Shown here: positions 32,358 through 58,760 of the stretch, piece by piece
Numbering within the stretch: position 1 is the first letter of the stretch
How the letters are laid out: every line of letters begins with the position of its first letter
Source: an uncultured Candidatus Rokubacteria bacterium
Lineage (GTDB): Bacteria; Methylomirabilota; Methylomirabilia; Rokubacteriales; DASRDR01
Length of the DNA stretch: 64,000 nucleotides
Direction: 5' to 3'
Assembly: GCA_963805625.1 (NCBI GenBank)
Contig: CAWDVE010000024.1
Span: 32,001 to 96,000, forward strand
The notes under the pieces: model-generated
The model's database searches: none
What the model was told of the DNA's origin: nothing
What the model saw: only the letters and a program-made list of their open reading frames with translations
Translations under genes and position numbers: made by a program

Positions 32358-32710
32358 GCTCCAGGGTCGGCCGGTTTCTCCCTGTGAAAGTCGGCGCCCG
32401 GGCCAGGCCATTCCAGGGTTGGCCTCACGGCTAAGGAGCCGGAGGCGCACAGAGGCTGGCGATGCTCGTATCCTGGTGGGAGGAGTAGGTTCGTCTGTGG
32501 AGCGCGTCGCGTGAAGGGTGGAAGCAACCACGGAAGAAGCCCCGCACCCTCGGCGCTCACGGAACGAGGGGACATCGTCTTCGACTGGACACTGATCGTC
32601 GCCGGACAATGGGCCGGGGCCAGCGACGAGTCGCCCCGAGTGGCGCGCCGGGTCCCAAGGCGACTGGCTCGCAGGTCGCCCGTCCGCGCCGTGGCAGAAA
32701 GGCTGCCGAC

Positions 32711-35700
32711 ATGCCGGGGCTGAAAGCCAGCGCACTGTTCCGAGACCTGGGGTCGCGCGCGTTCTCGTCCGGGTCGCTGCCTGACTCGCAGGACCCGATC
32801 AGGGCCGAGCTCTTCAGCGCCGAGCGCCTCGAACAGCATGCGGAAAGCGTCGCCGCGCAGCGTGTCCACGTCGAGGGTGGGAGGGGACGCCCCCTCTCAC
32901 CGCGCGTGCGAGACAGCGGGCGCGTGCTGCTCCGATGCTATCGCGAGGTCGCCGCCGTGATCCGAGAGGAAGGCGCGATCACCCCGGCCGCGGAGTGGTT
33001 CGTCGACAACTTCCACATCGTGGAGGACGTCCTTCGAGAAGTCCGGGAGGATCTTCCTCCGGGATTCTACCGCCGGTTGCCAAAGCTCGCGGAGGGACCC
33101 CTCGAGGGCTACCCCCGGGTACTCGGGCTGGCCTGGCCCTTCGTCGCCCACAGCGACAGCCGCTTCGAGCCCGAGACCCTCCAACGCTTCGTCCAGCGAT
33201 TCCAGCACGTCCAGGTGCTGACCATCGGCGAGCTGTGGGCCGTCCCGATCGCCCTACGTCTGGTGCTCCTGGAGAACCTCCGTCGTCTAGCCGAGCAGAT
33301 CGTCAACGGTCGCGCCGCGCGCCGTGACGCGGACGCGCTCGCGAACGAATTGCTGGGGCTCGGAGGGGAGCCGGCGCGCCGTCTGGCCTTTCGGCGGCTC
33401 GAGGCCGCTGCCCTGCCGATGGCCTTCACCGTGCAGCTCGTCCAGCGCCTGCGGGAGCAGGATCCGGAGTCGACACCGGCGCTCGCATGGCTCAGCGAAC
33501 AGCTGGCCGGCCTGGGCACGTCGCCCGAGGAGCTCGTGCGTCAGGAGCATCAGCGCCAGGCGGCGATGAACGTGACGGTCCGGAACGTGATTACCAGCAT
33601 GCGAACGATGTCGACGTTCGACTGGGCGGAGTTCTTCGAAAGCGTCAGTCTGGTCGATGCCGCGCTGCGCGCCGGGAGCGACTTCGGCGCGATGGACTTC
33701 AAGACGCGCGACCGTTACCGTCACGCGATCGAGGACCTCGCTCGAGGTTCACGGCGGACGGACATCGACGTCGCCCAGGAGGCGATCGCTCGAGCGAACC
33801 GCGCCGCTTCGGAGCGAGAGCCGGCGGGCACTCCGGCTGAATCCCGGGTCGAGGACCCTGGTTACTATCTGATCTCGAAGGGGCGCCGCGGCTTCGAACG
33901 GGAGATCGGCTACCGGGTCCCCCTCACACAGTGGCTGCTGCGAGCCTACGTGGGTGGAGCCACGCCGGGCTACCTGGGCACCATCGGCGTCATCGCGGGA
34001 TTGCTCGTGGTGGTTCCTCTCGTCGCCACGCATGCTGCGGGCGTGAGCCCGGTTGTGCTCGTTCTTCTCGGACTCGCCGCCTTGATTCCGGCATCCGATC
34101 TCGCCGTCGCGCTCATCAATCGCTTCGTCACGGAGCTGCTCGGTCCCCGAGCGCTGCCGCGCCTCGAGCTCGCCGAGGGCATCCCGCCGGCCCTACGAAC
34201 CCTCGTGGTGATGCCGACCCTGCTGGTGAGCGACGCCGAGATCGAGGAGCAGGTCAACCGCCTGGAGCTCCACTATCTGGCGAATCTGGAGGGCGCCATC
34301 CACTTCGCTCTCCTTTCTGACTGGATCGACGCGCCGGCGGAAACCATGCCGGCTGATGATCGGCTCCTCGAGACCGCCATCGAGGGGATCGCCCGGCTCA
34401 ACCGGCGCCATGGTCCCGCTCCCGACGCGGGGGCCCGATTCCTCCTGTTCCACCGGCGCCGGCTCTGGAATGACAGCGAGGGCCGGTGGATGGGATGGGA
34501 GCGCAAGCGCGGCAAACTGCAGGAGCTCAACCAGTTGCTCCTGGGGCACGACGGCACGACGTTCATGGGGTCCCGGCTGGACGTGCCACCTTCGGTCCGA
34601 TACGTGATCACCCTCGACGCGGACACGCGCCTGCCTCGAGGCGCCGCCATCCGCCTCGTCGGGACGATGGCCCATCCGCTCAACCGGCCTGTCTTCGATG
34701 CGCGCGTGGGCCGGGTCGTCGAGGGCTATGCGGTCCTTCAGCCGCGTGTCACTCCCACGATGCCCACCGATCGCGACACGTCACTCTTCCAGTGGCTCAC
34801 CGCCGGGCCGGCGGGGATCGATCCCTATGCGGCGGCGATCTCCGATGTCTACCAGGATCTCTTTGGAGGCGGCTCATACACCGGCAAGGGCATCTATGAC
34901 GTCGAGGCATTTGCCGGGGCGTTGGAGGGCCGCGTACCCGAGAATGCGCTCCTCAGCCACGACCTGTTCGAGGGCATCTTCGCGCGGACGGGACTGGTCA
35001 CCGACATCGAGCTTTTCGAGGAGTTCCCGACGGACTACGAGGTTGCAGCGGCCCGGCAGCATCGATGGGCGCGGGGCGACTGGCAACTGCTGCCCTGGAT
35101 CGTCCGGGGGGCCGCTGGCGCCGGGGCGCATCGAAGCTCCATCCCGCCGATCGATCAGTGGAAGATGGTGGACAATCTCCGTCGTACCCTGTCAGCTCCG
35201 GCCGCGTGGCTGACCCTTGCCACCGGCTGGACGCTGCCCGACCGCCTGCCGCTCGTGTGGACGACCTTCGTCCTCGCCACGATCGCGATACCCGCCCTCC
35301 TGCCTGCGTTCGCCGAGGCGATTCCGAGGCGAGCGGGAATCTCCAAGCGGACCCACATCCGGGCGGTCGGACGGAGCTTCGCGCTGGCGGCCTCCCAGAT
35401 TGCGCTGTGGATCACGTTCATGGCGCATCAGGCGTGGCTGATGGGCGACGCGATCGGACGGACCCTGGTCCGCGTGTATGGGACCCATCGACGGTTGCTC
35501 GAATGGATGACGGCCGCGCAGGCCAAGTTGGGACTATCCCTCACGCTGGCCGGTGCCTATCGACGGATGCACGGGGCGCCGATCCTGGCCGTTGTGGCCG
35601 GGATGCTGGTTGTTCTCGTTCGGCCAGGCAGCTGGCCGATCGCCCTGCCGTTCCTCTTGCTGTGGGTCCTCTCGCCGCTCATCGCACGATGGGTCAGCCG

Positions 35701-38700
35701 GCCCCCGCGCGTCGACCCGACGCAGGGGCTGTCGGCGTCGGATGCGAGGCTCCTCCGCTCGACCGCGCGCCGCACGTGGCGGTTCTTCGAAGCGTTCGTC
35801 GGTCCGGGCGATACGTTCCTGCCGCCTGACAACTTCCAGGAGGACCCGGCGCCGGTCCTCGCCCACCGCACGTCGCCGACCAACATCGGGCTGTATCTCG
35901 GGGCGATCGTCGCCGCCCGCGATCTCGGCTGGCTCGGGATGCTGGAGACCGTCGACCGGCTCGAGGCGACGCTCACGACGATGGGGCGGCTCGAGCGCTT
36001 CCGGGGCCACTTCTACAACTGGTATGAGACGACCGACCTTCGCCCGCTGGAGCCCCGCTACGTGTCCACGGTGGATAGCGGGAATCTGGCGAGCCAGCTC
36101 CTCGTTCTGGGAAATGCCTGCCGCGGGGCGCTCGAGCGCCCGCTACTCGATCACGAAGCCTTCGCCGGAATCGAGGACGCCGTATTGCTCGTACGCGAGG
36201 CGGCGAATGCCCTCGTGGATGACCGGCGCACGCAAACGGTGAGGCTCGGCCATCTGGACCAAGCCTGCGAGGCGCTGGTCATGATGCTGCGCGACCCACC
36301 TCGACCGGCGGCCGACTGGGTCGTCCGCTTGGGTCAGCTCGCCGGCCAGGCCGATGCCCTGGTGGACATCACACGCACGTTGACGGCGGAGCGCGGCGAT
36401 GGCGAGGACTCAGACGTCCTCGTCTGGGCGCAGGCGACGCGCGCCACCATCGCGAGCCACACGCGCGACCTCGACCGGCAGATGCCGTGGGCATCCCGTC
36501 TCGAGGCCGTCGTCGCCGACCTCCCCCCCGCGTCCCGCGAGGCCGCGATCGCGAGCCGGGCCCTCTGCTCCTCGTTTCCCACCCTGGCCGCGCTGGCTGA
36601 CCTCTGCGAGTGTGCGGTCAGTGAGCTCACGGCCATGCTCGACGGCGGCCCTCGCGCCGGATCCGCCCGTGGGGGTCGAGTCGAGCACGTCCACGAGCTC
36701 ATCGGACAGCTGGAGGGCGCGGCCGTGGCGTCACGAGCGCTCGTCGAGCGCCTCTCCGCCATCGCCCGCGTCACGAAGCAGCTCTTCGATGCGATGGACT
36801 TTGGCTTCCTCTTCCACTCTGCACGCAAGATCTTCTCGATCGGCTATCGCGTCACGGAGGGGAGTCTCGATCCGAGCGCGTACGATCTCCTCGCCTCCGA
36901 GGCGCGGCTCGCGAGCTTCATCGCGATTGCCAACGGCGGGGCACCCACGTCGCACTGGTTCCACCTGGGTCGCCCGATGACGCCCGTTGGGCTCGGGGCG
37001 GCGCTGGTGTCCTGGTCCGGCTCGATGTTCGAGTACCTGATGCCGGCGCTCGTCATGCAGGCGCCACCCGGAAGCTTGCTCCAGCGGACGTATCGCCTCG
37101 TCGTCCAGCGTCAGATCGGGTACGGTGCGGAGCACGGGATTCCCTGGGGCATCTCCGAATCGGCGTACAACGTGCGCGATCTCGACCTGACCTACCAGTA
37201 TTCGAACTTCGGGGTTCCGGGTCTGGGTCTCGAGCGGGGCCTCAGCGAGGACTTGGTCGTCGCGCCCTACGCGACCGCCCTGGCCGCCATGATCGACCCG
37301 AGTGCCGCCGCCCGTAACTTCACGCGCCTCATCGCGGTGGGCGGGAGGGGATTCTACGGCTTCTACGAGGCGTTGGACTACACGCCGTCCCGGCTCCCGG
37401 CGGGGACGACCGTGGCGATCGTTCGTGCCTACATGGCGCACCATCAGGGCATGACCCTCATCGCGCTGGCGAATGTGCTCCGAGATGGGGTGGTGCGCGC
37501 GCGATTCCACGGCGAGCCCATCATCCAGGCGACCGAGCTTCTCTTGCAGGAGCGCGTGCCCCGGGACGTGGCGGTGGCGAGACCGCGGGCGGAAGAGGTG
37601 CAGGCGCCGGCCCATGTGCGGGAGTTCGTGGAGCCGTCCTTCCGTCAGTTCACGTCTCCGCACGACCCGACGCCGCGGACGCACCTGCTCTCCAACGGCC
37701 GGTACACGGTGATGCTGACGACCGCGGGTTCGGGCTACAGCCGGTGCGCGGAGCTCGCCGTCACTCGATGGCGGGAGGATGTCACCCGGGATCACTGGGG
37801 GACCTATCTCTTCCTGCGGGATGTCCAGAGCGGGGCGGTATGGTCGGCGGGGTATCAGCCTACCGGAGTCGAGCCGGACGACTATCGCGCGACCTTCTCG
37901 GAGGACCGGGCCGAGTTGTATCGGCGCGATGGCGCCATCACGACCACGCTCGAGGTGCTGGTCTCGCCGGAGGCCGACGCCGAGCTGCGGCGGGTGTCCG
38001 TCATGAACCTGGGGGGGCAGACACGAGAGATCGAACTGACCTCCTACGCCGAGCTCGTGCTGGCGCCGCCGGCGGCGGATACCGCGCATCAGGCCTTTTC
38101 CAGCCTCTTCGTCCAGACGGAATGGGTAGCCGATCTCGGGGCCCTGCTGGCGACCCGCCGTGGCCGGTCGGCGACGGACCCGGCGATCTGGGCGGCCCAC
38201 ATCGTCGTCGTCGAAGGCCAGTCCGGTGGAGGGACTCAATACGAGACCGACCGCGGGCGGTTCCTCGGCCGGGGTCGCGGGGTCCGCACCCCGATGTCGG
38301 TCGTCGACGGGAGGCCCCTCTCGAACACGACCGGCTCGGTGCTCGATCCAATCTTCAGCCTCAGACGGCGAGTCCGTCTCGCGCCGGGAGAGAGCGCACG
38401 CCTCATCTTCTCCACGTTCGTCGGCCCGTCGCGCGAAGCCGCCCTGGCGCTCGCCGACAAGTATCGCGACCCCGCGACGTTCGAGCGGACGGTCACGCTG
38501 GCCTGGACGCGGGCGCAAATCCAGCTCCATCATCTCGGGGTTCGCGCGGACGAGGCCCGCCTGTTTCAGGATCTTGCAGGCCGGATTCTCTACGCGGACG
38601 CGACGCTTCGGCCCGCGGCGGTGATGTTGCGGCAGAATGCGTCCGGACCCGCGGCCCTGTGGGCCCACGGGATCTCCGGCGACCTCCCGATCGTCCTGGT

Positions 38701-41521
38701 CCGCATCGACGAGCCGGAGGATCGAGGGATCGTCCGACAGCTCCTCCGCGCGCACGAGTACTGGCGCCTGAAGGGGCTCGCGGTCGATCTGGTCATCCTG
38801 AACGAGCGGGCGCATTCCTACACGGAGGAGCTCCAGGCGTCGCTGGAGGCGCTGGTCCGGACGAGCCAGTCGGCATCGCGGCACGAGGGGCACGAGATAC
38901 ACGGGAAGGTCTTCATCCTGCGGAAGGACCTGCTCAAGGCGCCCGAGCGCGATGCCCTGCAGACGGCCGCTCGAGCCATCCTCCTGAGTCGGCACGGCAC
39001 GCTCGCCGAGCAACTCGCGCGGGCCACAATCACTCCGAGCCCGGCCACCCCGCCCCGCCGCCGCCCGGCCAGAACCCCATCCTCTGCCGACGCGCCGCCG
39101 GCCCGCCCGGAGTTCGAGTTCTTTAACGGGCTGGGGGGATTCGTCGACGATGGGCGGGAGTACGTGACCATCCTCGGAGAAGGGCAATGGACGCCCGCGC
39201 CCTGGATCAACGTCATCGCGAATCCCGCGTTCGGCTTCCAGGTCTCCGAGTGCGGGGCCGGCTACACGTGGTCGCGCAACAGCCGGGAGAATCAACTGAC
39301 GGCGTGGTCCAACGATCCCGTCAGCGACCCGCCCGGGGAGACCATCTATGTCCGGGACGAAGAGACCGGTGACCTGTGGGGCCCGACGGCGCTGCCCATC
39401 CGGGAGGACGCGTCGCCCTACGTCGCCCGGCATGGTCAGGGCTACAGCCGCTTCGAGCACACGTCCCATGGCATCTTCCTGAGTCTGCTCCAGTTCGTGC
39501 CGTTGAGCGACCCGGTGAAGATCTCCCGATTGAGGATCGAGAACCGATCCGGCAGGTCCCGGCGTCTATCCGTCACCGCGTACGTCGAATGGGTCCTGGG
39601 AGTCTCGCGAAGCGCGACTGCGCCCGTCATCGTCACCGAGATCGATCCGGGCACGGGTGCGCTGTTCGCGCGCAACCCGTGGAACATCGACTTCGGCGAT
39701 CACGTGGCCTTTGCCGATCTCGGGGGGCGTCAGACCGCGTGGACCGGCGATCGGACGGAGGTCCTGGGCCGGAACGGAACACTCGATCATCCGGCGCTCC
39801 TGGAGCGAGGGGGCCGCCCGTCCGGCCGGGTCGGCGCCGGACTCGACCCCTGCGCGGCCCTGCAGACCGTGATCGAGGTGGCGCCCGGCGGGCGCGAGGA
39901 GATCGTGTTCTTCCTCGGTGGGGCCGCGACGGCCGCCGAGGCGCGCGGGCTGCTCACTCGCTACCGGACAGCGGACCTCGATCTGACGTTGCAGGCCGTG
40001 AAGACTCGGTGGGACGACATCGTCGGCGCCATCCAAGTCAAGACGCCGGATCGCTCCGTGGACATCATGCTCAACCGCTGGCTTCTCTACCAGACGCTCG
40101 CCTGCCGTGTCTGGGCCCGATCCGCCTTCTATCAGGCCGGGGGCGCGTACGGGTTTCGCGACCAGCTGCAGGACGTCATGGCCTTGACCGTCACGAACCG
40201 GGAGGTCGCGCGGGAGCATCTCCTCCGGGCCGCCAGCCGGCAGTTCGTGGAGGGCGACGTGCAGCACTGGTGGCATCCCCCCTCCGGCCGGGGGGTGCGC
40301 ACCCGGATCTCCGACGACGCGATCTGGTTGCCCTACGCTGTCACGCAATACCTCGAGGCGACGGGCGATGCCGGCGTGCTTGACGAGGTCATCCCCTTCC
40401 TCGAAGGGCCCGTCCTCGAGACGGGGCAGCACGAGTCGTACTTCGAGCCCACGGTGTCCGCCGAGCACGGCACCGTGTTCGAGCACTGCGCCCGCGCGCT
40501 CGACCGGAGTCTCGCCATTGGCGTGCACGGCCTGCCTTTGATCGGTACGGGGGACTGGAACGACGGCCTGAACCGCGTCGGCCCCGAGGGGCATGGAGAG
40601 AGCGTGTGGCTCGGCTGGTTCCTGCACACGACCCTCTGGGAGTTCGCGCGGTGGGCCGATGCCCGCGGCGAGCGCGGCCGCGCCGAGAGGTGGCGCGGCC
40701 ACGTCGACATCCTGAAGACCTCGCTCGAAGAACAGGCATGGGACGGGGACTGGTATCGTCGCGCCTTCTTCGACGACGGGACCCCCCTCGGGTCCGTCGT
40801 CAACGCGGAGTGCCGCATCGACTCCATCGCGCAGTCGTGGGGGGTGCTCTCAGGCGCCGCGGAGCCGAAGCGCGCGGCGCGCGCGATGGCGGCCGTCGAG
40901 GAGTATCTCGTGCGGCGAGGGCAGGAGCTGGTCCTCCTGTTCACGCCCCCGTTCGACCGCGCGCCTGTCGACCCCGGCTACATCAAGGGTTACCCGCCAG
41001 GTGTGCGCGAAAACGGCGGCCAGTATACCCATGCCGCGATCTGGTCGGTGATGGCGTTCGCGGCGCTCGGTGACGGCGACAAGGCCAACGAGCTCTTCTC
41101 GATCCTGAACCCGATCAACCGCGCGAGCACGAGGGCGGGAGTCCACCGGTACAAGGTGGAGCCCTACGTGGCGGCCGCCGACGTCTATGCCGAGGCCCCG
41201 CATGTCGGCCGCGGAGGCTGGACGTGGTATACGGGCTCCGCGGGCTGGATGTACCGTGCGGGGATCGAGTGGCTCCTCGGGTTCCGGCTGCGTGGCGCGG
41301 TGCTTCACCTGGACCCCTGCATCCCGCGCGCGTGGCGACGCTTCGAGATCGCGTTCCGCTACCACGGGTCGCGCTATGAGATTACGGTCGAAAACCCCCG
41401 TGGGGTGTCGCGGGGCATTGCCCAGATCGAGGTCGATGGCCGTTTGCTGGCGTCCGGTAGCGCGAGCCTTCCCTTGACCGCGGATGGCGCGACACATCAA
41501 GTGCGCGCCATCCTGGGGTGA
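32711..41521 (+). CDS. ndvB: cyclic beta-1,2-glucan synthase (Cgs/NdvB/ChvB-type: GT84, central hydrolase-like domain, GH94 phosphorylase)
   Basis: PAAEWFVDNF, WMGWERKRGKL, YVITLDADT, LLSHDLFEG, RWARGDWQL, SWSGSMFEYLMP, PWGISES, QAGGAYGFRDQLQD, GDWNDG and RENGGQYTHA; about 2,936 aa. Confidence 0.95.
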   Translation: MPGLKASALFRDLGSRAFSSGSLPDSQDPIRAELFSAERLEQHAESVAAQRVHVEGGRGRPLSPRVRDSGRVLLRCYREVAAVIREEGAITPAAEWFVDNFHIVEDVLREVREDLPPGFYRRLPKLAEGPLEGYPRVLGLAWPFVAHSDSRFEPETLQRFVQRFQHVQVLTIGELWAVPIALRLVLLENLRRLAEQIVNGRAARRDADALANELLGLGGEPARRLAFRRLEAAALPMAFTVQLVQRLREQDPESTPALAWLSEQLAGLGTSPEELVRQEHQRQAAMNVTVRNVITSMRTMSTFDWAEFFESVSLVDAALRAGSDFGAMDFKTRDRYRHAIEDLARGSRRTDIDVAQEAIARANRAASEREPAGTPAESRVEDPGYYLISKGRRGFEREIGYRVPLTQWLLRAYVGGATPGYLGTIGVIAGLLVVVPLVATHAAGVSPVVLVLLGLAALIPASDLAVALINRFVTELLGPRALPRLELAEGIPPALRTLVVMPTLLVSDAEIEEQVNRLELHYLANLEGAIHFALLSDWIDAPAETMPADDRLLETAIEGIARLNRRHGPAPDAGARFLLFHRRRLWNDSEGRWMGWERKRGKLQELNQLLLGHDGTTFMGSRLDVPPSVRYVITLDADTRLPRGAAIRLVGTMAHPLNRPVFDARVGRVVEGYAVLQPRVTPTMPTDRDTSLFQWLTAGPAGIDPYAAAISDVYQDLFGGGSYTGKGIYDVEAFAGALEGRVPENALLSHDLFEGIFARTGLVTDIELFEEFPTDYEVAAARQHRWARGDWQLLPWIVRGAAGAGAHRSSIPPIDQWKMVDNLRRTLSAPAAWLTLATGWTLPDRLPLVWTTFVLATIAIPALLPAFAEAIPRRAGISKRTHIRAVGRSFALAASQIALWITFMAHQAWLMGDAIGRTLVRVYGTHRRLLEWMTAAQAKLGLSLTLAGAYRRMHGAPILAVVAGMLVVLVRPGSWPIALPFLLLWVLSPLIARWVSRPPRVDPTQGLSASDARLLRSTARRTWRFFEAFVGPGDTFLPPDNFQEDPAPVLAHRTSPTNIGLYLGAIVAARDLGWLGMLETVDRLEATLTTMGRLERFRGHFYNWYETTDLRPLEPRYVSTVDSGNLASQLLVLGNACRGALERPLLDHEAFAGIEDAVLLVREAANALVDDRRTQTVRLGHLDQACEALVMMLRDPPRPAADWVVRLGQLAGQADALVDITRTLTAERGDGEDSDVLVWAQATRATIASHTRDLDRQMPWASRLEAVVADLPPASREAAIASRALCSSFPTLAALADLCECAVSELTAMLDGGPRAGSARGGRVEHVHELIGQLEGAAVASRALVERLSAIARVTKQLFDAMDFGFLFHSARKIFSIGYRVTEGSLDPSAYDLLASEARLASFIAIANGGAPTSHWFHLGRPMTPVGLGAALVSWSGSMFEYLMPALVMQAPPGSLLQRTYRLVVQRQIGYGAEHGIPWGISESAYNVRDLDLTYQYSNFGVPGLGLERGLSEDLVVAPYATALAAMIDPSAAARNFTRLIAVGGRGFYGFYEALDYTPSRLPAGTTVAIVRAYMAHHQGMTLIALANVLRDGVVRARFHGEPIIQATELLLQERVPRDVAVARPRAEEVQAPAHVREFVEPSFRQFTSPHDPTPRTHLLSNGRYTVMLTTAGSGYSRCAELAVTRWREDVTRDHWGTYLFLRDVQSGAVWSAGYQPTGVEPDDYRATFSEDRAELYRRDGAITTTLEVLVSPEADAELRRVSVMNLGGQTREIELTSYAELVLAPPAADTAHQAFSSLFVQTEWVADLGALLATRRGRSATDPAIWAAHIVVVEGQSGGGTQYETDRGRFLGRGRGVRTPMSVVDGRPLSNTTGSVLDPIFSLRRRVRLAPGESARLIFSTFVGPSREAALALADKYRDPATFERTVTLAWTRAQIQLHHLGVRADEARLFQDLAGRILYADATLRPAAVMLRQNASGPAALWAHGISGDLPIVLVRIDEPEDRGIVRQLLRAHEYWRLKGLAVDLVILNERAHSYTEELQASLEALVRTSQSASRHEGHEIHGKVFILRKDLLKAPERDALQTAARAILLSRHGTLAEQLARATITPSPATPPRRRPARTPSSADAPPARPEFEFFNGLGGFVDDGREYVTILGEGQWTPAPWINVIANPAFGFQVSECGAGYTWSRNSRENQLTAWSNDPVSDPPGETIYVRDEETGDLWGPTALPIREDASPYVARHGQGYSRFEHTSHGIFLSLLQFVPLSDPVKISRLRIENRSGRSRRLSVTAYVEWVLGVSRSATAPVIVTEIDPGTGALFARNPWNIDFGDHVAFADLGGRQTAWTGDRTEVLGRNGTLDHPALLERGGRPSGRVGAGLDPCAALQTVIEVAPGGREEIVFFLGGAATAAEARGLLTRYRTADLDLTLQAVKTRWDDIVGAIQVKTPDRSVDIMLNRWLLYQTLACRVWARSAFYQAGGAYGFRDQLQDVMALTVTNREVAREHLLRAASRQFVEGDVQHWWHPPSGRGVRTRISDDAIWLPYAVTQYLEATGDAGVLDEVIPFLEGPVLETGQHESYFEPTVSAEHGTVFEHCARALDRSLAIGVHGLPLIGTGDWNDGLNRVGPEGHGESVWLGWFLHTTLWEFARWADARGERGRAERWRGHVDILKTSLEEQAWDGDWYRRAFFDDGTPLGSVVNAECRIDSIAQSWGVLSGAAEPKRAARAMAAVEEYLVRRGQELVLLFTPPFDRAPVDPGYIKGYPPGVRENGGQYTHAAIWSVMAFAALGDGDKANELFSILNPINRASTRAGVHRYKVEPYVAAADVYAEAPHVGRGGWTWYTGSAGWMYRAGIEWLLGFRLRGAVLHLDPCIPRAWRRFEIAFRYHGSRYEITVENPRGVSRGIAQIEVDGRLLASGSASLPLTADGATHQVRAILG

Positions 41522-43730: not shown

Positions 43731-45416
<1,686 letters not shown>

Positions 45417-45749
45417 TCACGCGCTGAGGATGCCGAGAACGTCCTCCTCCTTCATGATCAGATACTCCTTGCCGTTGAGCTTCACCTCGCTGCCGGAGTA
45501 CTTGCCGAACAGGATGCGGTCCCCCGTCTTGACGTCGAGCGGGAGCTTCTTGCCGTCGTCGGTCACCTTGCCGTTGCCGGCCGCGATGACCTTACCCTCC
45601 TGGGGCTTCTCCTTGGCGCTGTCCGGGATGATGATGCTCCCGTGCTTCTCTTCCCCCTCCTCGAGCCGCTTGACGAGCAGGCGGTCATGGAGCGGGCGCA
45701 GTGAGATCTTCGTTACCTGGGTCATTGGAGCTTTCGCTACCTGAGGCAT
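45417..45749 (-). CDS. groS: co-chaperonin GroES
   Basis: [26 protein letters not shown] and KYSGSEVK. Confidence 0.98.
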
Positions 45750-47722: not shown

Positions 47723-48565
47723 ATGAGCACGATCACGACGAAGGACGGCGCGCAGATCTACTACAAGGACTGGGGTAGCGGGCAGCCAATCGTGTTCAGT
47801 CACGGCTGGCCGCTCAGCGCTGAGGACTGGGACGCCCAGATGATCTTCTTCGCGTCGCGCGGTTTTCGATGCATTGCGCACGACCGCCGGGGTCACGGGC
47901 GATCGACCCAGACGTGGGACGGCAACGAGATGGACACGTATGCCGACGATCTCGTCACCCTCGCCGAGAAGCTCGACCTGAAGAATGCGATTCACGTCGG
48001 TCACTCGACGGGCGGCGGCGAGGTCGCACGGTACATCGGCCGTCACGGCGCCGGCCGCGCGAAGGGCCGCGTCGCCAAGGCCGTCCTGGTGGGCGCCGTG
48101 CCCCCGCTCATGGTCAAGACGGCCGCCAATCCCGGCGGGCTGCCCCTCGCCGTCTTCGACGGGTTTCGCGCGACGCTGCTGGCCGATCGGGCGCAATTCT
48201 TCAGGGACATCCCCGCGGGTCCGTTCTACGGCTTCAGTCGTCCCGGCGCGAAGGTGTCGCAAGGCATCATCGACAACTGGTGGCGCCAGGGCATGATGTC
48301 GGGCGTCAAAGCCGCCTACGACTGCATCAAGGCCTTCAGCGAGACCGATTTCACCGAGGACCTCAGGAAGATCGACGTCCCCACGCTGATCATGCACGGC
48401 GACGACGACCAGATCGTTCCCATCGGCGCCAGCGCGATGCTCTCGAGCAAGCTGGTACGGAACGCGCAGCTCAAGGTCTACAAGGGCTTGCCTCACGGCA
48501 TGTGCACGACTCACCATGACGTGATCAACGCGGACCTGCTGTCGTTCCTCAAGGCCCAGTTGTAG
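47723..48565 (+). CDS. cpo: non-heme chloroperoxidase / perhydrolase (alpha/beta hydrolase)
   Basis: [24 protein letters not shown] and HGDDDQIVP; AGGAGG RBS. Confidence 0.93.
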
Positions 48566-48591
48566 TAGGAAGGGGACACAGACCGCTCGGC

Positions 48592-49569
48592 ATGAACCTG
48601 ACCGACAGCGTGGAGCTGCTCGAACGATACAGCGCGATCATCCTGCCGATCCTGGTCGTCGCCGAGCAGGTCGGGATTCCGCTGCCGGCGGTCCCGGCCC
48701 TCCTTGCGGTCGGAGCCCTCGCGGCACAGGGGCGCGTGAGTCTCCTGCTGGTGATTGGCGCGATCGCGCTGGTCGCACTGCCCGTCGATCTCGTCTGGCA
48801 CGAGCTGGGGCGCCGGCGGGGGGCGCGCGTGCTCTCGGGGCTGTGCCGGCTGTCGCTCGAGCCCGATGTGTGCGTGCGGCGGACCGAGAACCTCTTCCTG
48901 CGCCACGGCGTCCGGGCGCTGCTCGTGGCGAAGTTCCTGCCGGGGCTGACGACCGTCATGCCGCCCCTGGCAGGAATCTTCGGCGTCCCGCGCCTCCGGT
49001 TCGCTCTCTACGACCTGGCCGGGGTCGTGCTGTGGGCGGGCCTCTGGGCGGCGATCGGTTACGCCTTCAGCGAGACCATCGAGGTGGTGGCGCTGCGCGT
49101 GAGCGCCCTGGGCCGCACGGCCGGCCTGATGGTGGTCGGCGCCCTCGTCGGCTATGTCCTGCTGAAATACCTGCGCCGCTGGCTCTTTATCCGGCAGCTC
49201 CGGATTGCCCGCATCTCTCCGGAGGAGCTTAAGCGACAGCTCGAGGCCGGGGAGGACGTCGCGATTCTCGACCTCCGCACCGCGCTGGACGTGGCCGCCA
49301 CCCCGTATGCGATTCCGGGCAGCCGCTGGGTCACGGCCGAGGCGCTCGACGAGCACCTGTCGGACATCCCGCGCGATCGCGAGCTTGTCCTCTATTGCTC
49401 CTGACCCAACGAAGCGACGAGCGCCCGGGTGGCGCTTCGGCTCAAGCGGCGCGGGATCACCCGCGTCCGTCCCCTCGCCGGCGGGATGGCGGGGTGGATG
49501 GCCCTGAACTTCCCGGTCCGCGAGCTGGCCGCGCCAGCGATCCCCGCGCTCGATCGGTCGCAGCAGTGA
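48592..49569 (+). CDS. DedA (VTT)-rhodanese fusion, probable selenoprotein (in-frame UGA at 49402-49404)
   Basis: DedA motifs EQVGIPLPA and AKFLPGL; rhodanese LDLR...IPGS...LVLYCS-UGA-PNEATSARVA...VRPLAGG...W continues in frame to TGA 49567-49569. Confidence 0.85.
49418..49439 (+). promoter_or_regulatory. putative bacterial SECIS hairpin
   Basis: CGAGCGCC-CGGGT-GGCGCT(T)CG: 8-bp stem with one bulged U; G-rich loop begins 21 nt after the UGA. Confidence 0.7.
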
Positions 49570-49629
49570 GGCGTGCGATGATCGCAGCCGATCGCGCTCC
49601 ACGCCTGCGGCACTGGCGCAGGCCAGCAG

Positions 49630-49805
49630 GCGCCTGCAGTGACACGACCGGCCGATTTGCCTCGGAGGTTGGCTACCACGTGACCCTGGTGAAGGATGTG
49701 ACCGCGGCCTTCACTCGGGAGATGATGAGCGCCGCACACGAGCTGAACGATCCGATGTTTCGCGAACAGGATTGTGACGACGGTCGAGCTGGGCGTCGCG
49801 CTGTC
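49630..49805 (+). pseudogene. isochorismatase / cysteine hydrolase C-terminal remnant
   Basis: CSDTTGRFASEVGYHVTLVKDVTAAFTREMMSAAHELN; no N-terminal portion. Confidence 0.78.
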
Positions 49806-49836: not shown

Positions 49837-50535
49837 ATGATCCAGGTTCGATCCGCCGGGGACCGCGGCCGCACTGACTGGGGCTGGCTCGACAGCCGGC
49901 ACACGTTCTCGTTCGGGGAGTATCACGACCCCGCGCACATGGGATTCAGCACGTTGCGGGTGATCAACGATGATCGGGTGAAGGCCGGCGCCGGGTTCGG
50001 CGCCCACGGGCACCGCGACATGGAGATCATGTCCTATGTGCTCGAGGGCGCGCTCGAGCACAAGGACAGCTCGGGCGGCGGCGGCGTGATCCGGCCGGGG
50101 GAGATCCAGCTGATGCGGGCCGGCACGGGCGTCACCCACAGCGAACAGAACCATTCGAAGGTCGCCCCGGTGCACTTCCTGCAGATCTGGATCGTGCCGG
50201 ATGCGCTCGGCCTGAAGCCGGGCTACGGACAGCAGGTCTTCGATCGGGAGATGGCCAGCCGGGCGTTCGTGCTCCTCGCTTCGAAGGGAGGCAGGGACAA
50301 CAGCCTCGACGTCCATCAGGACGTGGACCTCTGGGTCGCCTTCATCGGCGCGGGTGAGCGTCGAGACCTCCGGCTGCGCACCTCCCGTCATGCGTGGATC
50401 CACGTCGCCCGCGGATCGGTCTCGGTGAACGGGATCGTGCTGAAGGTGGGTGACGGCGGGGCGGTCAGCGGCGAGGACGGCCTGACCTTCCTCGGGCAAG
50501 AGCCGGCCGAGGTGCTCGTGTTCGACCTGGCGTGA
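49837..50535 (+). CDS. pirin family protein (YhhW-like)
   Basis: HTFSF, LRVINDD, HGHRDMEI, HKDS and MRAGTGVTHSE. Confidence 0.95.
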   Translation: MIQVRSAGDRGRTDWGWLDSRHTFSFGEYHDPAHMGFSTLRVINDDRVKAGAGFGAHGHRDMEIMSYVLEGALEHKDSSGGGGVIRPGEIQLMRAGTGVTHSEQNHSKVAPVHFLQIWIVPDALGLKPGYGQQVFDREMASRAFVLLASKGGRDNSLDVHQDVDLWVAFIGAGERRDLRLRTSRHAWIHVARGSVSVNGIVLKVGDGGAVSGEDGLTFLGQEPAEVLVFDLA

Positions 50536-50613
50536 CACAATTCAAGGATACGGGATGGACCGGACCGAGACGTAGGCCGCCGGTGCAACCATTTCTCACA
50601 CAAGGAGCCCGAC

Positions 50614-51093
50614 ATGTTCAACACTCGAAACGATCTGCCCAAGACGACCCGGGCGAAGGTCATCGACCTCCTCGACGCCCGGCTCGCCGATGCGACGGAC
50701 CTGCAAACCCAGCTCAAGCAGGCCCACTGGAACGTGAAGGGCCCGACCTTTATCGCGCTCCACGAGCTCTTCGACAAGATCAACGAGGCGGTGGAGGACT
50801 ACGTGGACGATCTGGCCGAGCGCGTGGTGCAGCTCGGCGGGACTGCCCACGGAACGGCGCGGCAGGCCGCCAAGCGCTCGAGCTTGCCGGAGTTCCCGGC
50901 AGTGATCGACGGGCGCGCCCACGCCGAGGCGGTGGCGACGGTGCTGGCCGCATTCGGCAAGCTGGCGCGCGCGGGCATCGATCAGGCTGACAAGCTGGGC
51001 GACAAGGACACCGCCGATCTGTTCACGGAGATCTCGCGCGGCACCGACAAGTGGCTGTGGTTCGTCGAGGCGCACCTGCAGGCGAACCGGTAG
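50614..51093 (+). CDS. dps: DNA starvation/stationary phase protection protein Dps
   Basis: KQAHWNVKGPTFIALHELFD, DDLAER and DKWLWFVEAH. Confidence 0.96.
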   Translation: MFNTRNDLPKTTRAKVIDLLDARLADATDLQTQLKQAHWNVKGPTFIALHELFDKINEAVEDYVDDLAERVVQLGGTAHGTARQAAKRSSLPEFPAVIDGRAHAEAVATVLAAFGKLARAGIDQADKLGDKDTADLFTEISRGTDKWLWFVEAHLQANR

Positions 51094-53546: not shown

Positions 53547-55262
53547 ATGCGCACGTACTACGAGATCGACCTGACCGGTCGTACGGTCACGAAGCGGGAT
53601 CTGCAGGGCGAGGAAATCGTCAGAGCCGGCCGCTACCTCATCGCCCGGACGCTCCTCGAGCGGGGCGCGGCGACGGTCGACCCGCTCTCACCCGCGAACC
53701 CGCTCATCTTCTCGGCGGGCCCCTTCGCGGGGACGTCGTTCTCCAACGCGAACCGGACCAGCGTCGGCTGCAAGAGCCCGCTGACGGGCGGCATCAAGGA
53801 GGCGAACGGCGGCGGGACCTTCAGCTACGGACTGGGTCAGCTAGGCATCTCCGGCTTCACGCTCTCCGGGGCGGCGCCGGACTGGGTGGTCCTCCACTTC
53901 CGGAAGGACGGTGGCATCGACTTCGACGACGCTGCGCCGTACCTCGGCAAGGGGAACTTCCAGGCCGCTGAGATGCTCCACGCCCGCTACGGCAAGAAGG
54001 TCTCCCTCGGGCTGTGCGGCCCGGTGGGTGAGTACGGGGGTCTGATCGCCGGCATCTCCTTCAGCGACAAGGATCGCCGTCCGTCGCGCCTGGCGGCGCG
54101 TGGCGGCGTCGGGGCGGTGATGGGCGCCAAGCGGGTCAAGGCCATCGTGCTCGACCTCGACCGGATTCCGCCCTTCCACGACAGCCGCAAGGTCACCGCC
54201 GCGATCAAGGACTACGCCAAAATGCTGCAGGCCGACAGTATCGTGGAGAACTTCTACGCGAAGCTCGGGACCATGGGCATGGCCGATGTCCAGAATCACA
54301 TGGGCGGCCTGCCGGTCCGGAACTTCAGCGCCGGGCAGCTCGCGGACACCGGCGCCGGCGAGAGGTTCAAGCTGGGCGCCGACTACATCGGCCCCCTCAA
54401 CACGTCCCGCGGCGGCGAGCAGACCCACGCGTGCATGCCCGGCTGCGTCATCCAGTGCAGCAACGTGTACCACGACGCAAGCGGCAAGGAGGTCGTCTCA
54501 CCGGTCGAGTACGAGACTCTGGGGCTCCTCGGCTCGAACTGTGGGCTCACCGAGCCCGACGACCTCGCCCAGCTCAACTTCATCTGCAACGACCTGGGTG
54601 TCGACACGATCGAAACAGGCGCGACGCTGGCCGTCCTGATGGAGGCGGGCCTCGGCGCCTTCGGAGACGCGAAGTTCATGGCCGATGCCCTCGGCGAGAT
54701 CGCCCGCGGAACGGAGAAGGGGCGCATCTGGGCCCAGGGCACGGCGCGCGTGGGGGCCCATTACAACGTGCGGCGGACGCCCGTCATCAAGCGCCAGGCC
54801 ATCAGCGCCTACGACCCCCGTGTTGTGGAGGCCACCGGCATCACCATGATGGTCACCGCCCAGGGCGCCGACCATACGGCCGGCAACCTGCCACGCCTCA
54901 AGACGCGCGAGATGGACCTCGACACGCTCATGAGCCAGAGCCTCCTCCAGCAGACGCGCGTGGCCGCCAACGACTCGCTCGGGCTCTGTATCTTCGGCCA
55001 GAGCGTGACAAACCCCAACACCGAGTTCCTGGCGACCACCATCAACGCGGCCCACGGCACGAGCCTGACCAAGGAGTTCTTCGAGGCGCTGGGCCGGGAG
55101 ACGCTCCGGCTCGAGCACGAGTTCAACCGGCAGGCCGGCTTCACGGCGCGCGACGACGAGCTGCCGCAGTTCTTCTACGAGGAGGCGCTGCCGCCCACCA
55201 ATCACGTCGCACGATTCCACGGGGCGGACGTACACTCGATCTACGAGCGCCTGCCGACCTGA
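53547..55262 (+). CDS. aldehyde:ferredoxin oxidoreductase (tungsten-pterin AOR family)
   Basis: KSPLTGGIKEANGGG, AARGGVGAVMGAK, CxxxCxxxC, EYET and DLGVDTIE. Confidence 0.93.
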   Translation: MRTYYEIDLTGRTVTKRDLQGEEIVRAGRYLIARTLLERGAATVDPLSPANPLIFSAGPFAGTSFSNANRTSVGCKSPLTGGIKEANGGGTFSYGLGQLGISGFTLSGAAPDWVVLHFRKDGGIDFDDAAPYLGKGNFQAAEMLHARYGKKVSLGLCGPVGEYGGLIAGISFSDKDRRPSRLAARGGVGAVMGAKRVKAIVLDLDRIPPFHDSRKVTAAIKDYAKMLQADSIVENFYAKLGTMGMADVQNHMGGLPVRNFSAGQLADTGAGERFKLGADYIGPLNTSRGGEQTHACMPGCVIQCSNVYHDASGKEVVSPVEYETLGLLGSNCGLTEPDDLAQLNFICNDLGVDTIETGATLAVLMEAGLGAFGDAKFMADALGEIARGTEKGRIWAQGTARVGAHYNVRRTPVIKRQAISAYDPRVVEATGITMMVTAQGADHTAGNLPRLKTREMDLDTLMSQSLLQQTRVAANDSLGLCIFGQSVTNPNTEFLATTINAAHGTSLTKEFFEALGRETLRLEHEFNRQAGFTARDDELPQFFYEEALPPTNHVARFHGADVHSIYERLPT

Positions 55263-56174: not shown

Positions 56175-58760
56175 GTGTCCCCGGGGACATGGGCCAGCCG
56201 GAAGCCCCTAGCGATGGGCGTCCCTCCGGACTATTCGCCAAAGCATCCGTTCGCTGACACCGTCGACCCGGACGTCTTCTACCGAAGTCCGATGCACGAG
56301 ACCGTCTGCGCTGAGCTCTTCGCTGCTGGGAAGACACACCCTGGCTTGCTCGTCCTCTCCGGCGAGCCGGGAACCGGGAAGACGACTGTGTTGCGTCGCG
56401 TCGCGCGTCATCTGGAGCAAGCGGGCGGCCGCGTGTTCTGGTGCGGTGACATCCTGTCGCTCCACGAAATGTTCGGCCCGGTTGGCGGAGGGCCGGGTGC
56501 CCCCGACACCGCCACACCGGAGGCGCTCCTCGCCACGATGCAGGCTCGCGTCCAGTCGGCCGGCGCGACGGTCGTCGCCGTCGACGAGGCGCAGCGCCTG
56601 GAGCCGGGGGAACTCGGCATTCTCTGCGACCTCGCAGAGGCTGGGCGGGGGTCCGGGAGGCCCTTAGTCGTCCTGCTCGTAGGCCTACCCGGGCTTGACG
56701 TGAAGCTCGCGCCTCTCGTGGGGAATAGAGCCGGACGGGCCTCCGCGTTTCACGCCCGGTTGTCGCGTCTCGAGACCCCGGAGGTGCGCGCCTACATGGC
56801 GTACCGGCTCGAGCGAGCGGGGGTGCGCCTCGATCGCCTCTTCCAAGCCGAAGCGGTGGAGCGCGTCGCCGCCTACGCTGAGGGCATTCCGCGGGTGATC
56901 AACCACCTCTGCTACGGTGCTCTCCACGGCGCCCGCGAGGCCCGTCTCACGATGGTATCGGCGCCCGCCGTCGACGCCGCGGCCCACTGGCTCGACCTCC
57001 CGCCGCCTGCTGATACACGGGTGACGGGTGCGTGGCGTGCGACGGGTCCATGGAGGGAACTCTGGGCAGCACGCCGGGCGCTGTCCGGGCGCAGGATGAT
57101 TCAAGCGTGGTCGCCCGGGATTGACGTCGCGGCCCTCGGCCTCCCGGTGCCCAGTGCGTGGGGCGGGGCGCGCCGGCGGCTCAGGCTCTGGGCAGCACGC
57201 CGGGCGCTGTCCGGGCGCAGGATGATTCGAGCGTGGTCGCCCGGGATTGACGTCGCGGCCCTCGGCCTCCCGGTGCCGAGTGCGTGGGGCGGGGCGCGCC
57301 GGCGGCTCAGGCTCTGGGCAGCACGCCGGGCACAGTCCGGGCGCAGGATGATTCGAGCGTGGTCGCCCGGGATGGACGTCGCGGCCCTCGGCCTCCCGGT
57401 GCCGACTGCGTGGGGCGGGGCGCGCCGGCGGCTCAGGCGCTGGGCAGCACGCGGGGCACAGTCCGGGCGCAGGATGATTCGAGCGTGGTCGCCCGGGATG
57501 GACGTCGCGGCCCTCGGCCTCCCGGTGCCGACTGCGTGGGGCGGGGCGCGCCGGCGGCTCAGGCGCTGGGCGGCACGCGGGGCACAGTCCGGGCGCAGGA
57601 TGATTCGAGCGTGGTCGCCCGGGATTGATGTCGCGGGCCTCGGCCTCCCGGTGCCGACTGCGTGGGGCGGGGCGCGCCGGCGGCTCAGGCGCTGGGCGGC
57701 ACGCGGGGCACAGTCCGGGCGCAGGATGATTCGAGCGTGGTCGCCCGGGATTGATGTCGCGGGCCTCGGCCTCCCGGTGCCGACTGCGTGGCGCGGGGCG
57801 CGCCGGCGGCTCAGGCGCTGGGCAGCACGCGGGGCACAGTCCGGGCGCAGGATGATTCGAGCGTGGTCGCCGGGCATCGGCATCGCGGCCCTCGGCCTGG
57901 GAGCGATCGCGGTGTTCTTTGCGCCCCGGCTGACATCACAGCCGCCGTCGTCGCCACCGCAGCAGGCGGCACCCGTGCAAGACAGGCCGGTGAAGCCGCC
58001 CCCGCTCGTGTCCGCTCCCGGCGTGCCGATGCGCCCGCCAAAGACCGCGCAGATCATCGAGCGTCCACCGCCGCCAGCCACGCCCCGTCGGGTGGAGCCG
58101 CCCTTGGACACGGTGCCCGTCCCGCAACCGTCTGCCCGAGGGGGGACGTGCGGCGGGCCGCCCCCTCGGGTGGTCTCGGGGACGCCCGCGTCGGGGCCGG
58201 CCCGCCGAGCGCCTTCGGCGGCGGTGGCCCTCCTGCAAAGCGCGGAGGCGGGCAACCTGACAGAAGTGCGAGACATCATCGACGCGGGGGTGTCGCCCAA
58301 CGCGCGGGATACCGCAGGGATGACGCCTCTCATGATGGCCGTCATCCACGACCACGGTCCGGTCGTCGAGCTCTTGCTCACCAGGGGTGCCAACATTAAC
58401 ACGGGAGACGTCAGCGGCATTACGGCACTCATGCTGGCAGCGAACAACGGGCGAGCTGTGCTCCTCCAGCGGCTTCTTGCGCGCGGCGCCAAGGTTAACG
58501 CCCAGACGCGGACAGGCTGGACGGCGCTCATGTGCGCGGCTTGGGCGGGGCATCCGAGCATTGTCCGCCGACTGCTCGATTCCGGCGCGGATCCCGCACT
58601 TCCCGACCGGACGGGGCGGACCGCGCTTCAGTACGCAACCTTGCGAGCCGCGGATCCAGCGAACCCATCGGCGGGGAACGCCGCGGCACTGCCTGCGGTT
58701 GCCCACCGCCGCTACGTCGAGGTAATCGACGTTCTCAGCAAAGCGAGCAGGCGGCGTTAG
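56175..58760 (+). CDS. ExeA/GspA-like AAA ATPase - 42-aa tandem repeats - TM - Pro-rich linker - ankyrin repeats
   Basis: GEPGTGKT, VAVDEAQRL, LLVGLP and GIPRVINHLC; TM ALGLGAIAVFFA; ankyrin motifs GMTPLMMAV, GITALMLAA, GWTALMCAA and GRTALQYA. Confidence 0.85.
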   Translation: MSPGTWASRKPLAMGVPPDYSPKHPFADTVDPDVFYRSPMHETVCAELFAAGKTHPGLLVLSGEPGTGKTTVLRRVARHLEQAGGRVFWCGDILSLHEMFGPVGGGPGAPDTATPEALLATMQARVQSAGATVVAVDEAQRLEPGELGILCDLAEAGRGSGRPLVVLLVGLPGLDVKLAPLVGNRAGRASAFHARLSRLETPEVRAYMAYRLERAGVRLDRLFQAEAVERVAAYAEGIPRVINHLCYGALHGAREARLTMVSAPAVDAAAHWLDLPPPADTRVTGAWRATGPWRELWAARRALSGRRMIQAWSPGIDVAALGLPVPSAWGGARRRLRLWAARRALSGRRMIRAWSPGIDVAALGLPVPSAWGGARRRLRLWAARRAQSGRRMIRAWSPGMDVAALGLPVPTAWGGARRRLRRWAARGAQSGRRMIRAWSPGMDVAALGLPVPTAWGGARRRLRRWAARGAQSGRRMIRAWSPGIDVAGLGLPVPTAWGGARRRLRRWAARGAQSGRRMIRAWSPGIDVAGLGLPVPTAWRGARRRLRRWAARGAQSGRRMIRAWSPGIGIAALGLGAIAVFFAPRLTSQPPSSPPQQAAPVQDRPVKPPPLVSAPGVPMRPPKTAQIIERPPPPATPRRVEPPLDTVPVPQPSARGGTCGGPPPRVVSGTPASGPARRAPSAAVALLQSAEAGNLTEVRDIIDAGVSPNARDTAGMTPLMMAVIHDHGPVVELLLTRGANINTGDVSGITALMLAANNGRAVLLQRLLARGAKVNAQTRTGWTALMCAAWAGHPSIVRRLLDSGADPALPDRTGRTALQYATLRAADPANPSAGNAAALPAVAHRRYVEVIDVLSKASRRR
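57060..57897 (+). repeat. 126-bp coding tandem repeat, about 6.6 copies
   Basis: Units start at 57060, 57186, 57312, 57438, 57564, 57690 and 57816 (last one partial); near-identical. Confidence 0.97.

Follow-up and report, generated by a model that had tools for sequence, protein, structure and literature searches.

The window, that is, the whole stretch of 64,000 nucleotides analysed here, carries on its forward strand a gene in which a DedA membrane domain is joined to a rhodanese-fold domain, with a TGA codon in frame inside the latter. The features of the locus are as follows.

47723..48565, + strand: alpha/beta hydrolase gene, upstream (recurs in 7 of 59 loci)
about 48567-48575, + strand: purine-rich, RBS-like stretch upstream of the DedA-rhodanese gene
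48592..49569, + strand: DedA-rhodanese gene, 325 aa with TGA taken as selenocysteine (Sec)
48685..49062, + strand: DedA/VTT core, aa 32-157 (PF09335, E 1.2e-10); the membrane part covers approximately aa 1-200
48844..48873, + strand: Cys85-x8-Cys94 pair in a helix-turn-helix, predicted to be cytoplasmic (helices 78-87 and 91-113, AlphaFold)
49216..49503, + strand: rhodanese-fold domain, aa 209-304, NF041203-like (PF00581, E 1.1e-10), spanning the TGA
49396..49398, + strand: Cys269, which structural alignment puts at the canonical catalytic site of rhodaneses
49402..49404, + strand: in-frame TGA, predicted Sec271 (from frame, conservation and Cys counterpart)
49420..49436, + strand: predicted SECIS core, 6-bp stem 49420-49425/49431-49436 with a 5-nt loop (comparative evidence)
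49837..51093, + strand: pirin and Dps-like ferritin genes, downstream (pirin in 7 of 59 loci, Dps in 4 of 59)

When the gene was translated with table 11, the open reading frame from ATG 48592 ended at 49404 after 270 aa. When TGA was read as U, the translation continued to 325 aa and a terminal stop TGA at 49567-49569, 54 codons past the internal TGA, and the residues around that codon were LVLYCS-U-PNEATSARVA...VRPLAGG...W. Translation thus bore out the sequence-only reading, in which the frame halted at TGA 49402 and 54 further codons gave the rhodanese C-terminus. One public-run contig, which may or may not represent the source sample, spanned 48400-49449 across the TGA with 0 differences; the internal TGA is not an assembly error. 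In one run of an RNA library (n = 1), where DNA carry-over is possible, contigs covered most of the gene and none of the gene's own bridged the TGA. A scan for promoters and terminators gave matches at chance level only.

Subsequently, the codon was compared among relatives. For the first set, 61 related genomes were searched and the 30 best loci considered; 29 of these read Y-C-x-TGA-P and one read Y-C-A-S. A search of the phylum (151 genomes) gave 84 matches in 64 genomes, of which 77 contained TGA, the exact column being verified for part of them, and 7 contained none. The non-TGA copies and 14 more TGA copies were fetched and duplicates and fragments were removed, which left 51 distinct full-length phylum genes, a set enriched for non-TGA copies; their codon for residue 271 was TGA in 44, TGC in 3, Ser in 2 and Glu in 2. 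TGA was retained in relatives down to approximately 40% identity, the protein sequence downstream of it was conserved, and neither TAA nor TAG occurred at this column in the 63 loci checked. When the 120 best database proteins were inspected, 104 of them terminated at the Sec codon; the others have Cys (4), Ser (11) or Arg (1) there. The best 150 representatives at the 50% level comprised 85 with C-x-C, 39 cut directly after C-x, 12 that differ and 14 without coverage of the site. The statement that homologs read YCxCPNE was confirmed by these 85 sequences, in which Cys aligns with the UGA, and TGA/Cys pairs were found within the phylum as well, in the form of the three TGC genes.

The codon could also be a true stop, a nonsense mutation or an error of the assembly, as the 104 proteins ending there and a split selB gene in the same assembly would suggest. 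However, protein ends of this kind are gene-caller products, the downstream frame is conserved as protein with TGA as the only stop codon at the column, and the selB break is a missing base (described below). We regard this explanation as hardly credible. The expectation that standard annotation would truncate the gene was borne out by those same 104 database proteins, which lose the second half of the rhodanese domain; together with the 39 of 150 distant representatives that stop at the same codon, they indicate a systematic annotation error, which the Sec reading would correct.

In a quick tree of 66 rows, from which the Sec column was excluded, the Cys, Ser and Glu forms of the phylum nested among the TGA rows in several places. 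Because of this nesting, Sec looks ancestral in the phylum clade, the root being a midpoint root only. As a separate observation, the paralogs L020, L054, L057, L058, L104-L106, L108 and L109 formed a series of stepwise decay, in which Sec gives way to Ser or Glu, Cys85 or Cys94 is lost and the rhodanese domain disappears.

The genes for Sec insertion were then sought in the genome. selA scored above the cut-off, tRNA-Sec (selC) was present, and selD contained its own in-frame TGA followed by a G-loop hairpin (Sec-type selD). The selB gene adjoins selA and is split in two frames (contig C21:223609-225488; L100 near 3982) by one missing base in a G run. The extra base was present in contigs of 3 of 4 runs, the fourth showing none at that place, and both congeners (2/2) have an unbroken selB of 637-638 aa; judged from these sequences, the frameshift is a homopolymer slip of the assembly. 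Other apparent pseudogenes in the same assembly may be slips of the same kind. All four genes proposed for checking, selA, selB, selC and selD, were hence found, and a lack of selABC, which had been named as evidence against a selenoprotein, was not observed, selB being broken by the one-base slip alone. The DedA-rhodanese gene itself was not near selABC or selD. Co-occurrence with selA was uninformative as a discriminating test (selA in 55 of 63 genomes with a TGA copy versus 133 of 151 overall). The 8 TGA genomes with no full selA match showed selB in 2, tRNA-Sec in 1 and selD in 7 (5 with TGA). Six of the 8 had none of selA, selB and selC, and 4 of these 6 have a TGA-bearing selD; since selA, selB and selC are clustered, this suggests, but does not prove, that contigs are missing there. 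A regex control for a Sec formate dehydrogenase gave no credible match in this genome.

The sequence-only reading also placed a hairpin with a bulged U and a G-rich loop 13 nt after the UGA. A single-sequence fold of 60 nt indeed gave a stem from 49418 (13 nt past the UGA) with the loop CGGGU and a bulged U49436. However, the bulge was rejected as a conserved feature: the bases after the core vary freely, and U49436 is paired in the conserved form. The loop of this conserved core begins 22 nt past the UGA, and the G in its second place is invariant. Folding energy was rejected as evidence for a SECIS, as it was no better than that of shuffled sequences (z 0.08, -0.41, 0.47, 1.37 and -0.96 in 5 folds). 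It is the comparative evidence, not the energy, that argues for a hairpin beyond chance. Codon choice at S277, A278, V280 and A281 was fixed at 98-100% among the 44 TGA genes, compared with 0 of 78 other conserved degenerate columns reaching 90% codon fixation, and R279 was never encoded by CGC, though no other Arg codon is as common in these genes. The full 6-bp stem was found in 43 of 44, versus 9.4% expected from random synonymous recoding by codon usage. At 62 distinct TGA sites, including those of other fusions, 96% of the cells were paired and 3 of the 6 pairs showed two-sided changes (6 cells); 0 of 500 shuffles matched this pairing and covariation and slid controls paired 17-63%, figures that are inflated by the relatedness of the sequences. 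One compensatory change in the stem was synonymous on both sides. At 9 non-TGA sites the stem was broken in 5 (all 3 from other phyla and 2 TGC copies of the phylum) and kept in 4. The bacterial SECIS is described, in the accessible part of PMC1088965, as a hairpin just 3' of the UGA with a small apical loop containing G, and the hairpin here matches that description in its position and its invariant loop G. In soil runs, moreover, short contigs of numerous other organisms accumulated on 49369-49455, which indicates that the stretch of the TGA and hairpin is strongly conserved at the DNA level.

Taken together, the conserved UGA, its Cys counterpart, the conserved hairpin and the presence of selA, selB, selC and selD, combined with the established biology of SelB and tRNA-Sec, support the 325-aa membrane selenoprotein that had been proposed. 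Relatives that all carry TGC with no conserved hairpin would have spoken for a different explanation, and the relatives in fact keep both the TGA and the hairpin. The UGA of this gene is thus almost certainly read as Sec, and the predicted product is a full-length, transporter-like membrane protein with a selenium-bearing tail.

We next considered the rhodanese domain. Cys269 aligned with the Cys in the loop of 5ve3, 3tp9 and 6pfz and is Cys in 135 of 141 distant homologs, and Sec271 lies two residues past it, within a two-residue loop insertion; the active-site loop is two residues longer than those of 5ve3, 3tp9 and 6pfz and not longer than that of 6mxv. The TGA therefore lies in the rhodanese active-site loop as described, but the classic catalytic position belongs to Cys269 and not to Sec271. 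Compared with sulfurtransferases of the GlpE/PspE type, the protein has the Cys at the start of the loop and differs from the first three structures in loop length. The best NCBIfam match was NF041203, with 82.8 bits against a cut-off of 115 and coverage of 19-124 of 126 positions. The C-x-U of this equivalog is present, and the protein is neither at the required score (at least 115 bits) nor a stand-alone domain of approximately 126 positions; of 18 matches from 5 relatives, likewise, 0 passed on either count. All 29 matches listed by Foldseek at E<=0.001 were rhodanese folds, and the structure searches found no solved DedA-rhodanese structure. In an AlphaFold model built from 42 sequences (mean pLDDT 84.3, pTM 0.73), the membrane part is helical and is followed by an alpha/beta domain.

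The same module occurs with other partners. Twenty weaker matches in relatives all carried a Y-C-x-TGA rhodanese, joined to a trypsin-like protease in 12, a class III cyclase-like domain in 5 and DedA in 2, with 1 fragment. The protease fusions (L073-L078, L083-L088) are approximately 500 aa long and consist of a trypsin-like protease, a membrane helix and a C-terminal C-x-U rhodanese; 12 of 12 retain both the TGA and the hairpin. In L079-L082 and L091, an N-terminal C-x-U rhodanese precedes the class III cyclase-like domain, with a compensatory variant of the hairpin. A second rhodanese in this genome is a stand-alone F-Y-C-A-U protein (C19:112500-112817; L099:3998-4318), whose hairpin has the same spacing and a different sequence. 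In L025:1498-2817, a DedA-rhodanese(U) continues in frame into a second rhodanese(U), giving two TGA codons in one open frame.

One possible function of the domain, to which the selenite link of the sequence-only reading belongs, is that of a catalytic sulfur/selenium transferase, in which DedA would move an oxyanion of sulfur or selenium or a thiol conjugate and the C-S-U motif would reduce it or pass it on. The canonical position of Cys269 agrees with this, as does the name that NCBI gives to the Cys type, 'DedA family protein/thiosulfate sulfurtransferase GlpE', and a DedA protein of C. metallidurans is cited in connection with selenite uptake in the available portions of PMC8679861, PMC10470534 and PMC2744661. 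However, the searches gave no tie between that selenite DedA and the rhodanese-fused type, the loop carries the two-residue insertion relative to solved sulfurtransferases, and NF001195, the model for GlpE, was absent from the 11 NCBIfam matches. In addition, no sulfur or selenium gene recurred as a neighbour in 59 loci, and the gene lies at a distance from selABC and selD. We consider a transferase rather unlikely.

The DedA domain scored above the gathering cut-off of PF09335 (42.4 bits versus 33.9), and over 131 aa it was 33% identical to YghB of E. coli. Four residues at re-entrant helices, E39, D51, R130 and R136 of YghB, are given as flippase hallmarks in the accessible text of PMC9881974. 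E39 corresponds to E25 (E or D in 98 of 137 homologs) and R130 to K114 (K or R in 142 of 149), whereas D51 corresponds to V34, in a variable and non-acidic column, and R136 to T120, in a column of S, N, A, G and D (150 homologs). Of the two acidic and two basic residues of COG0586 flippases, one of each kind is thus kept and neither set is complete. Flippase activity, which the sequence-only reading had also suggested for DedA, is consistent with the retained equivalents of E39 and R130, and the loss of those of D51 and R136 speaks against it. It is improbable that DedA works here as an ordinary undecaprenyl-phosphate (UndP) flippase beside an independent rhodanese. The portion of PMC9881974 referred to above assigns fusions with a rhodanese to the flippase subfamily COG0586, and the UptA models gave weak matches (29.5 and 24.7 bits), but their cut-offs are 250 and 300 bits, and such a flippase would leave the extra pair of Cys85 and Cys94 unexplained.

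Cys85 is Cys in 135 of 144 and Cys94 in 135 of 146 distant homologs, and both are absent from YghB. Positions 85, 94, 269 and 271 are the only strongly conserved Cys/Sec positions of the protein. Basic clusters were found at aa 70-108 (9 K/R) and aa 192-210. By the positive-inside rule, basic residues mark the cytoplasmic side of membrane proteins; the Cys pair and the rhodanese domain are therefore both predicted to be cytoplasmic. To follow the pair, 12 partial N-terminal matches were fetched, of which 2 were frameshifted full genes and were dropped and 10 were DedA-only genes and were kept, and 70 DedA domains were placed in a FastTree. Cys85 and Cys94 were both kept in each of the 51 fused rows that carry Sec or Cys at position 271. 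The rhodanese-less copies nested among the fused rows, in about four places of the tree and one of them on a long branch, had lost one or both Cys in 5 of 5 cases. Rows with Ser or Glu at position 271 had lost one Cys of the pair in 3 of 8 cases, and the Ser clade kept the pair in 5 of 6 rows. Among the DedA-only genes outside the fused clade, 3 of 5 kept both Cys, and around these three no rhodanese gene was found within the 2.5-4 kb fetched. These results suggest that the Cys pair and the C-x-C/U motif are linked. A strict rule, that Cys85 is lost with Sec, was unsupported among the distant representatives, where the pair was missing in 8 of 81 CxC rows and kept in 10 of 12 rows with no CxC (Fisher p 0.23).

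The four conserved thiol or selenol residues, which are predicted to lie on one side of the membrane, might form a binding site for a soft metal or a metalloid (Zn, Cu, Hg or As), which would serve to sense or export it; for a different DedA, the accessible part of PMC8679861 gives a link with indium extrusion. Among metal-resistance genes, however, only an RND/OEP pair recurred as a neighbour (4 of 59 loci), and where the partner is a protease or a cyclase, the same C-x-U occurs with no DedA Cys pair. A metal site is accordingly quite improbable.

Our preferred reading is that the rhodanese acts as a thiol/persulfide redox switch on the DedA Cys pair, to which, as a whole mechanism, we assign a probability of about 0.4; it ranks above the transferase, the UndP flippase and the metal site, in that order. 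The UGA would be translated as Sec to give a 325-residue inner-membrane DedA whose C-terminal domain has the rhodanese fold and carries Cys-Ser-Sec, and charge distribution and model predict the DedA Cys pair and this domain to be on the cytoplasmic side. Cys269 would then take up sulfane sulfur or an oxidant, Sec271 would resolve it as a selenylsulfide and exchange with Cys85/Cys94, and this exchange would switch the transport or lipid-scrambling activity of DedA during thiol or oxidative stress; these latter steps together carry the same probability. The redox switch is favoured since the module recurs with partners unrelated to one another, only half of the flippase residues remain and a matching Cys pair is present in DedA. 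Indeed, the occurrence of C-x-U on a protease and a cyclase in relatives is what is expected of a portable regulatory module. The recurrent neighbours point the same way, namely pirin, Dps and a cNMP-fused FAD oxidoreductase (6 of 59 loci). On the other hand, the p value of 0.23 for the association of the Cys pair with C-x-C/U, the retention of both Cys in stand-alone DedAs (n = 3) and in most rows of the Ser clade, and the mostly variable neighbourhood speak against the redox switch. A wider proposal, somewhat doubtful, is that the C-x-U rhodanese is a plug-in selenium sensor for DedA, protease and cyclase alike, with a four-residue relay gating a DedA transporter of something other than UndP; if this were true, the relay of Cys85, Cys94, Cys269 and Sec271 would give a redox-gated DedA.

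The C-x-U rhodanese corresponds to rhodanese-like selenoprotein form 3, NF041203 rhodanese_LYCAU (Table 1 in the available part of PMC13188914; also the accessible text of PMC9312934), which is a catalogued CxU form. The rhodanese fold and Y-C-x-U are common to form 3 and the present protein, and the stand-alone copy on contig C19 is of that type; the form 3 model, however, describes a stand-alone domain of 126 positions, which is fused here behind a DedA domain of 200 aa. A membrane-rhodanese selenoprotein with UxxxxU (accessible part of PMC13188914) is likewise a membrane protein joined to a Sec-bearing rhodanese, but its membrane domain and motif are different, and this gene scores 17.4 bits versus 805. 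The Cys type of the DedA-rhodanese fusion was already known (available parts of PMC9881974 and PMC12893004). P. aeruginosa PA1209 (311 aa) shares the architecture, the Cys pair, C-x-C and, in the 311-aa P. aeruginosa record, an adjoining pirin gene, but has Cys in place of Sec and no hairpin. The E. coli flippases of COG0586, YghB and UptA, belong to the same DedA fold family and share the E39 and R130 equivalents; the present protein differs from them in having no D51 and R136 equivalents and in possessing Cys85/Cys94 and the Sec-rhodanese. The link of rhodanese-DedA to UndP is called 'unclear' in the accessible part of PMC9881974, and section 6 of PMC12893004, as far as available, describes no growth, envelope or antibiotic phenotype for single dedA deletions.

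A literature search combining selenoprotein, rhodanese and DedA found no Sec DedA-rhodanese fusion, and papers on DedA and rhodanese held nothing on Sec in their titles or in such text as was covered. The accessible part of PMC13188914, including its table, names no DedA/VTT fusion; DedA is absent from the available part of PMC9312934, and DedA/VTT from the available parts of PMC12013277 (text and 4 supplements) and PMC13326102 (text and part of the supplement). The fusion is thus not in the catalogues examined, and proteins of this kind may be entered in BSepDB as form 3.

The predicted protein would represent an additional membrane selenoprotein architecture in a soil lineage that is widespread. 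The family-specific Cys85/Cys94 pair in its DedA part and the two missing flippase residues are newly described here. Sec usually marks a redox-active site, and its position would locate the chemistry of the uncharacterised PA1209-type DedA-rhodanese family. Furthermore, the Cys pair would offer a direct mutational handle on why rhodanese is fused to DedA.

Finally, the neighbourhood was compared over flanks of 1.5-4 kb. There was no conserved operon, and no neighbour family occurred in more than 7 of 59 loci. Besides the genes mentioned above, an alcohol dehydrogenase recurred in 5 of 59 loci, and pirin also precedes the gene of the P. aeruginosa Cys homolog. We take the recurrent neighbours, such as pirin, Dps and the oxidoreductases, to be thiol/oxidative-stress genes. 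Between the DedA-rhodanese gene and pirin, 49580-49775 (+) holds a short degenerate frame with no Pfam match at 1e-5, which presumably resembles an isochorismatase C-terminus. Elsewhere in the window, a pair at 43731-45749 (-) is presumably groES-groEL-like, and a 2970-aa open reading frame at 32609-41521 (+) is presumably cyclic glucan synthase-like. An aldehyde ferredoxin oxidoreductase lies at 53547-55262 (+). At 56175-58760 (+) there is an 861-aa open reading frame, which we take to have a P-loop at its N-terminus, an ankyrin-like C-terminus and about seven internal repeats that are almost identical.
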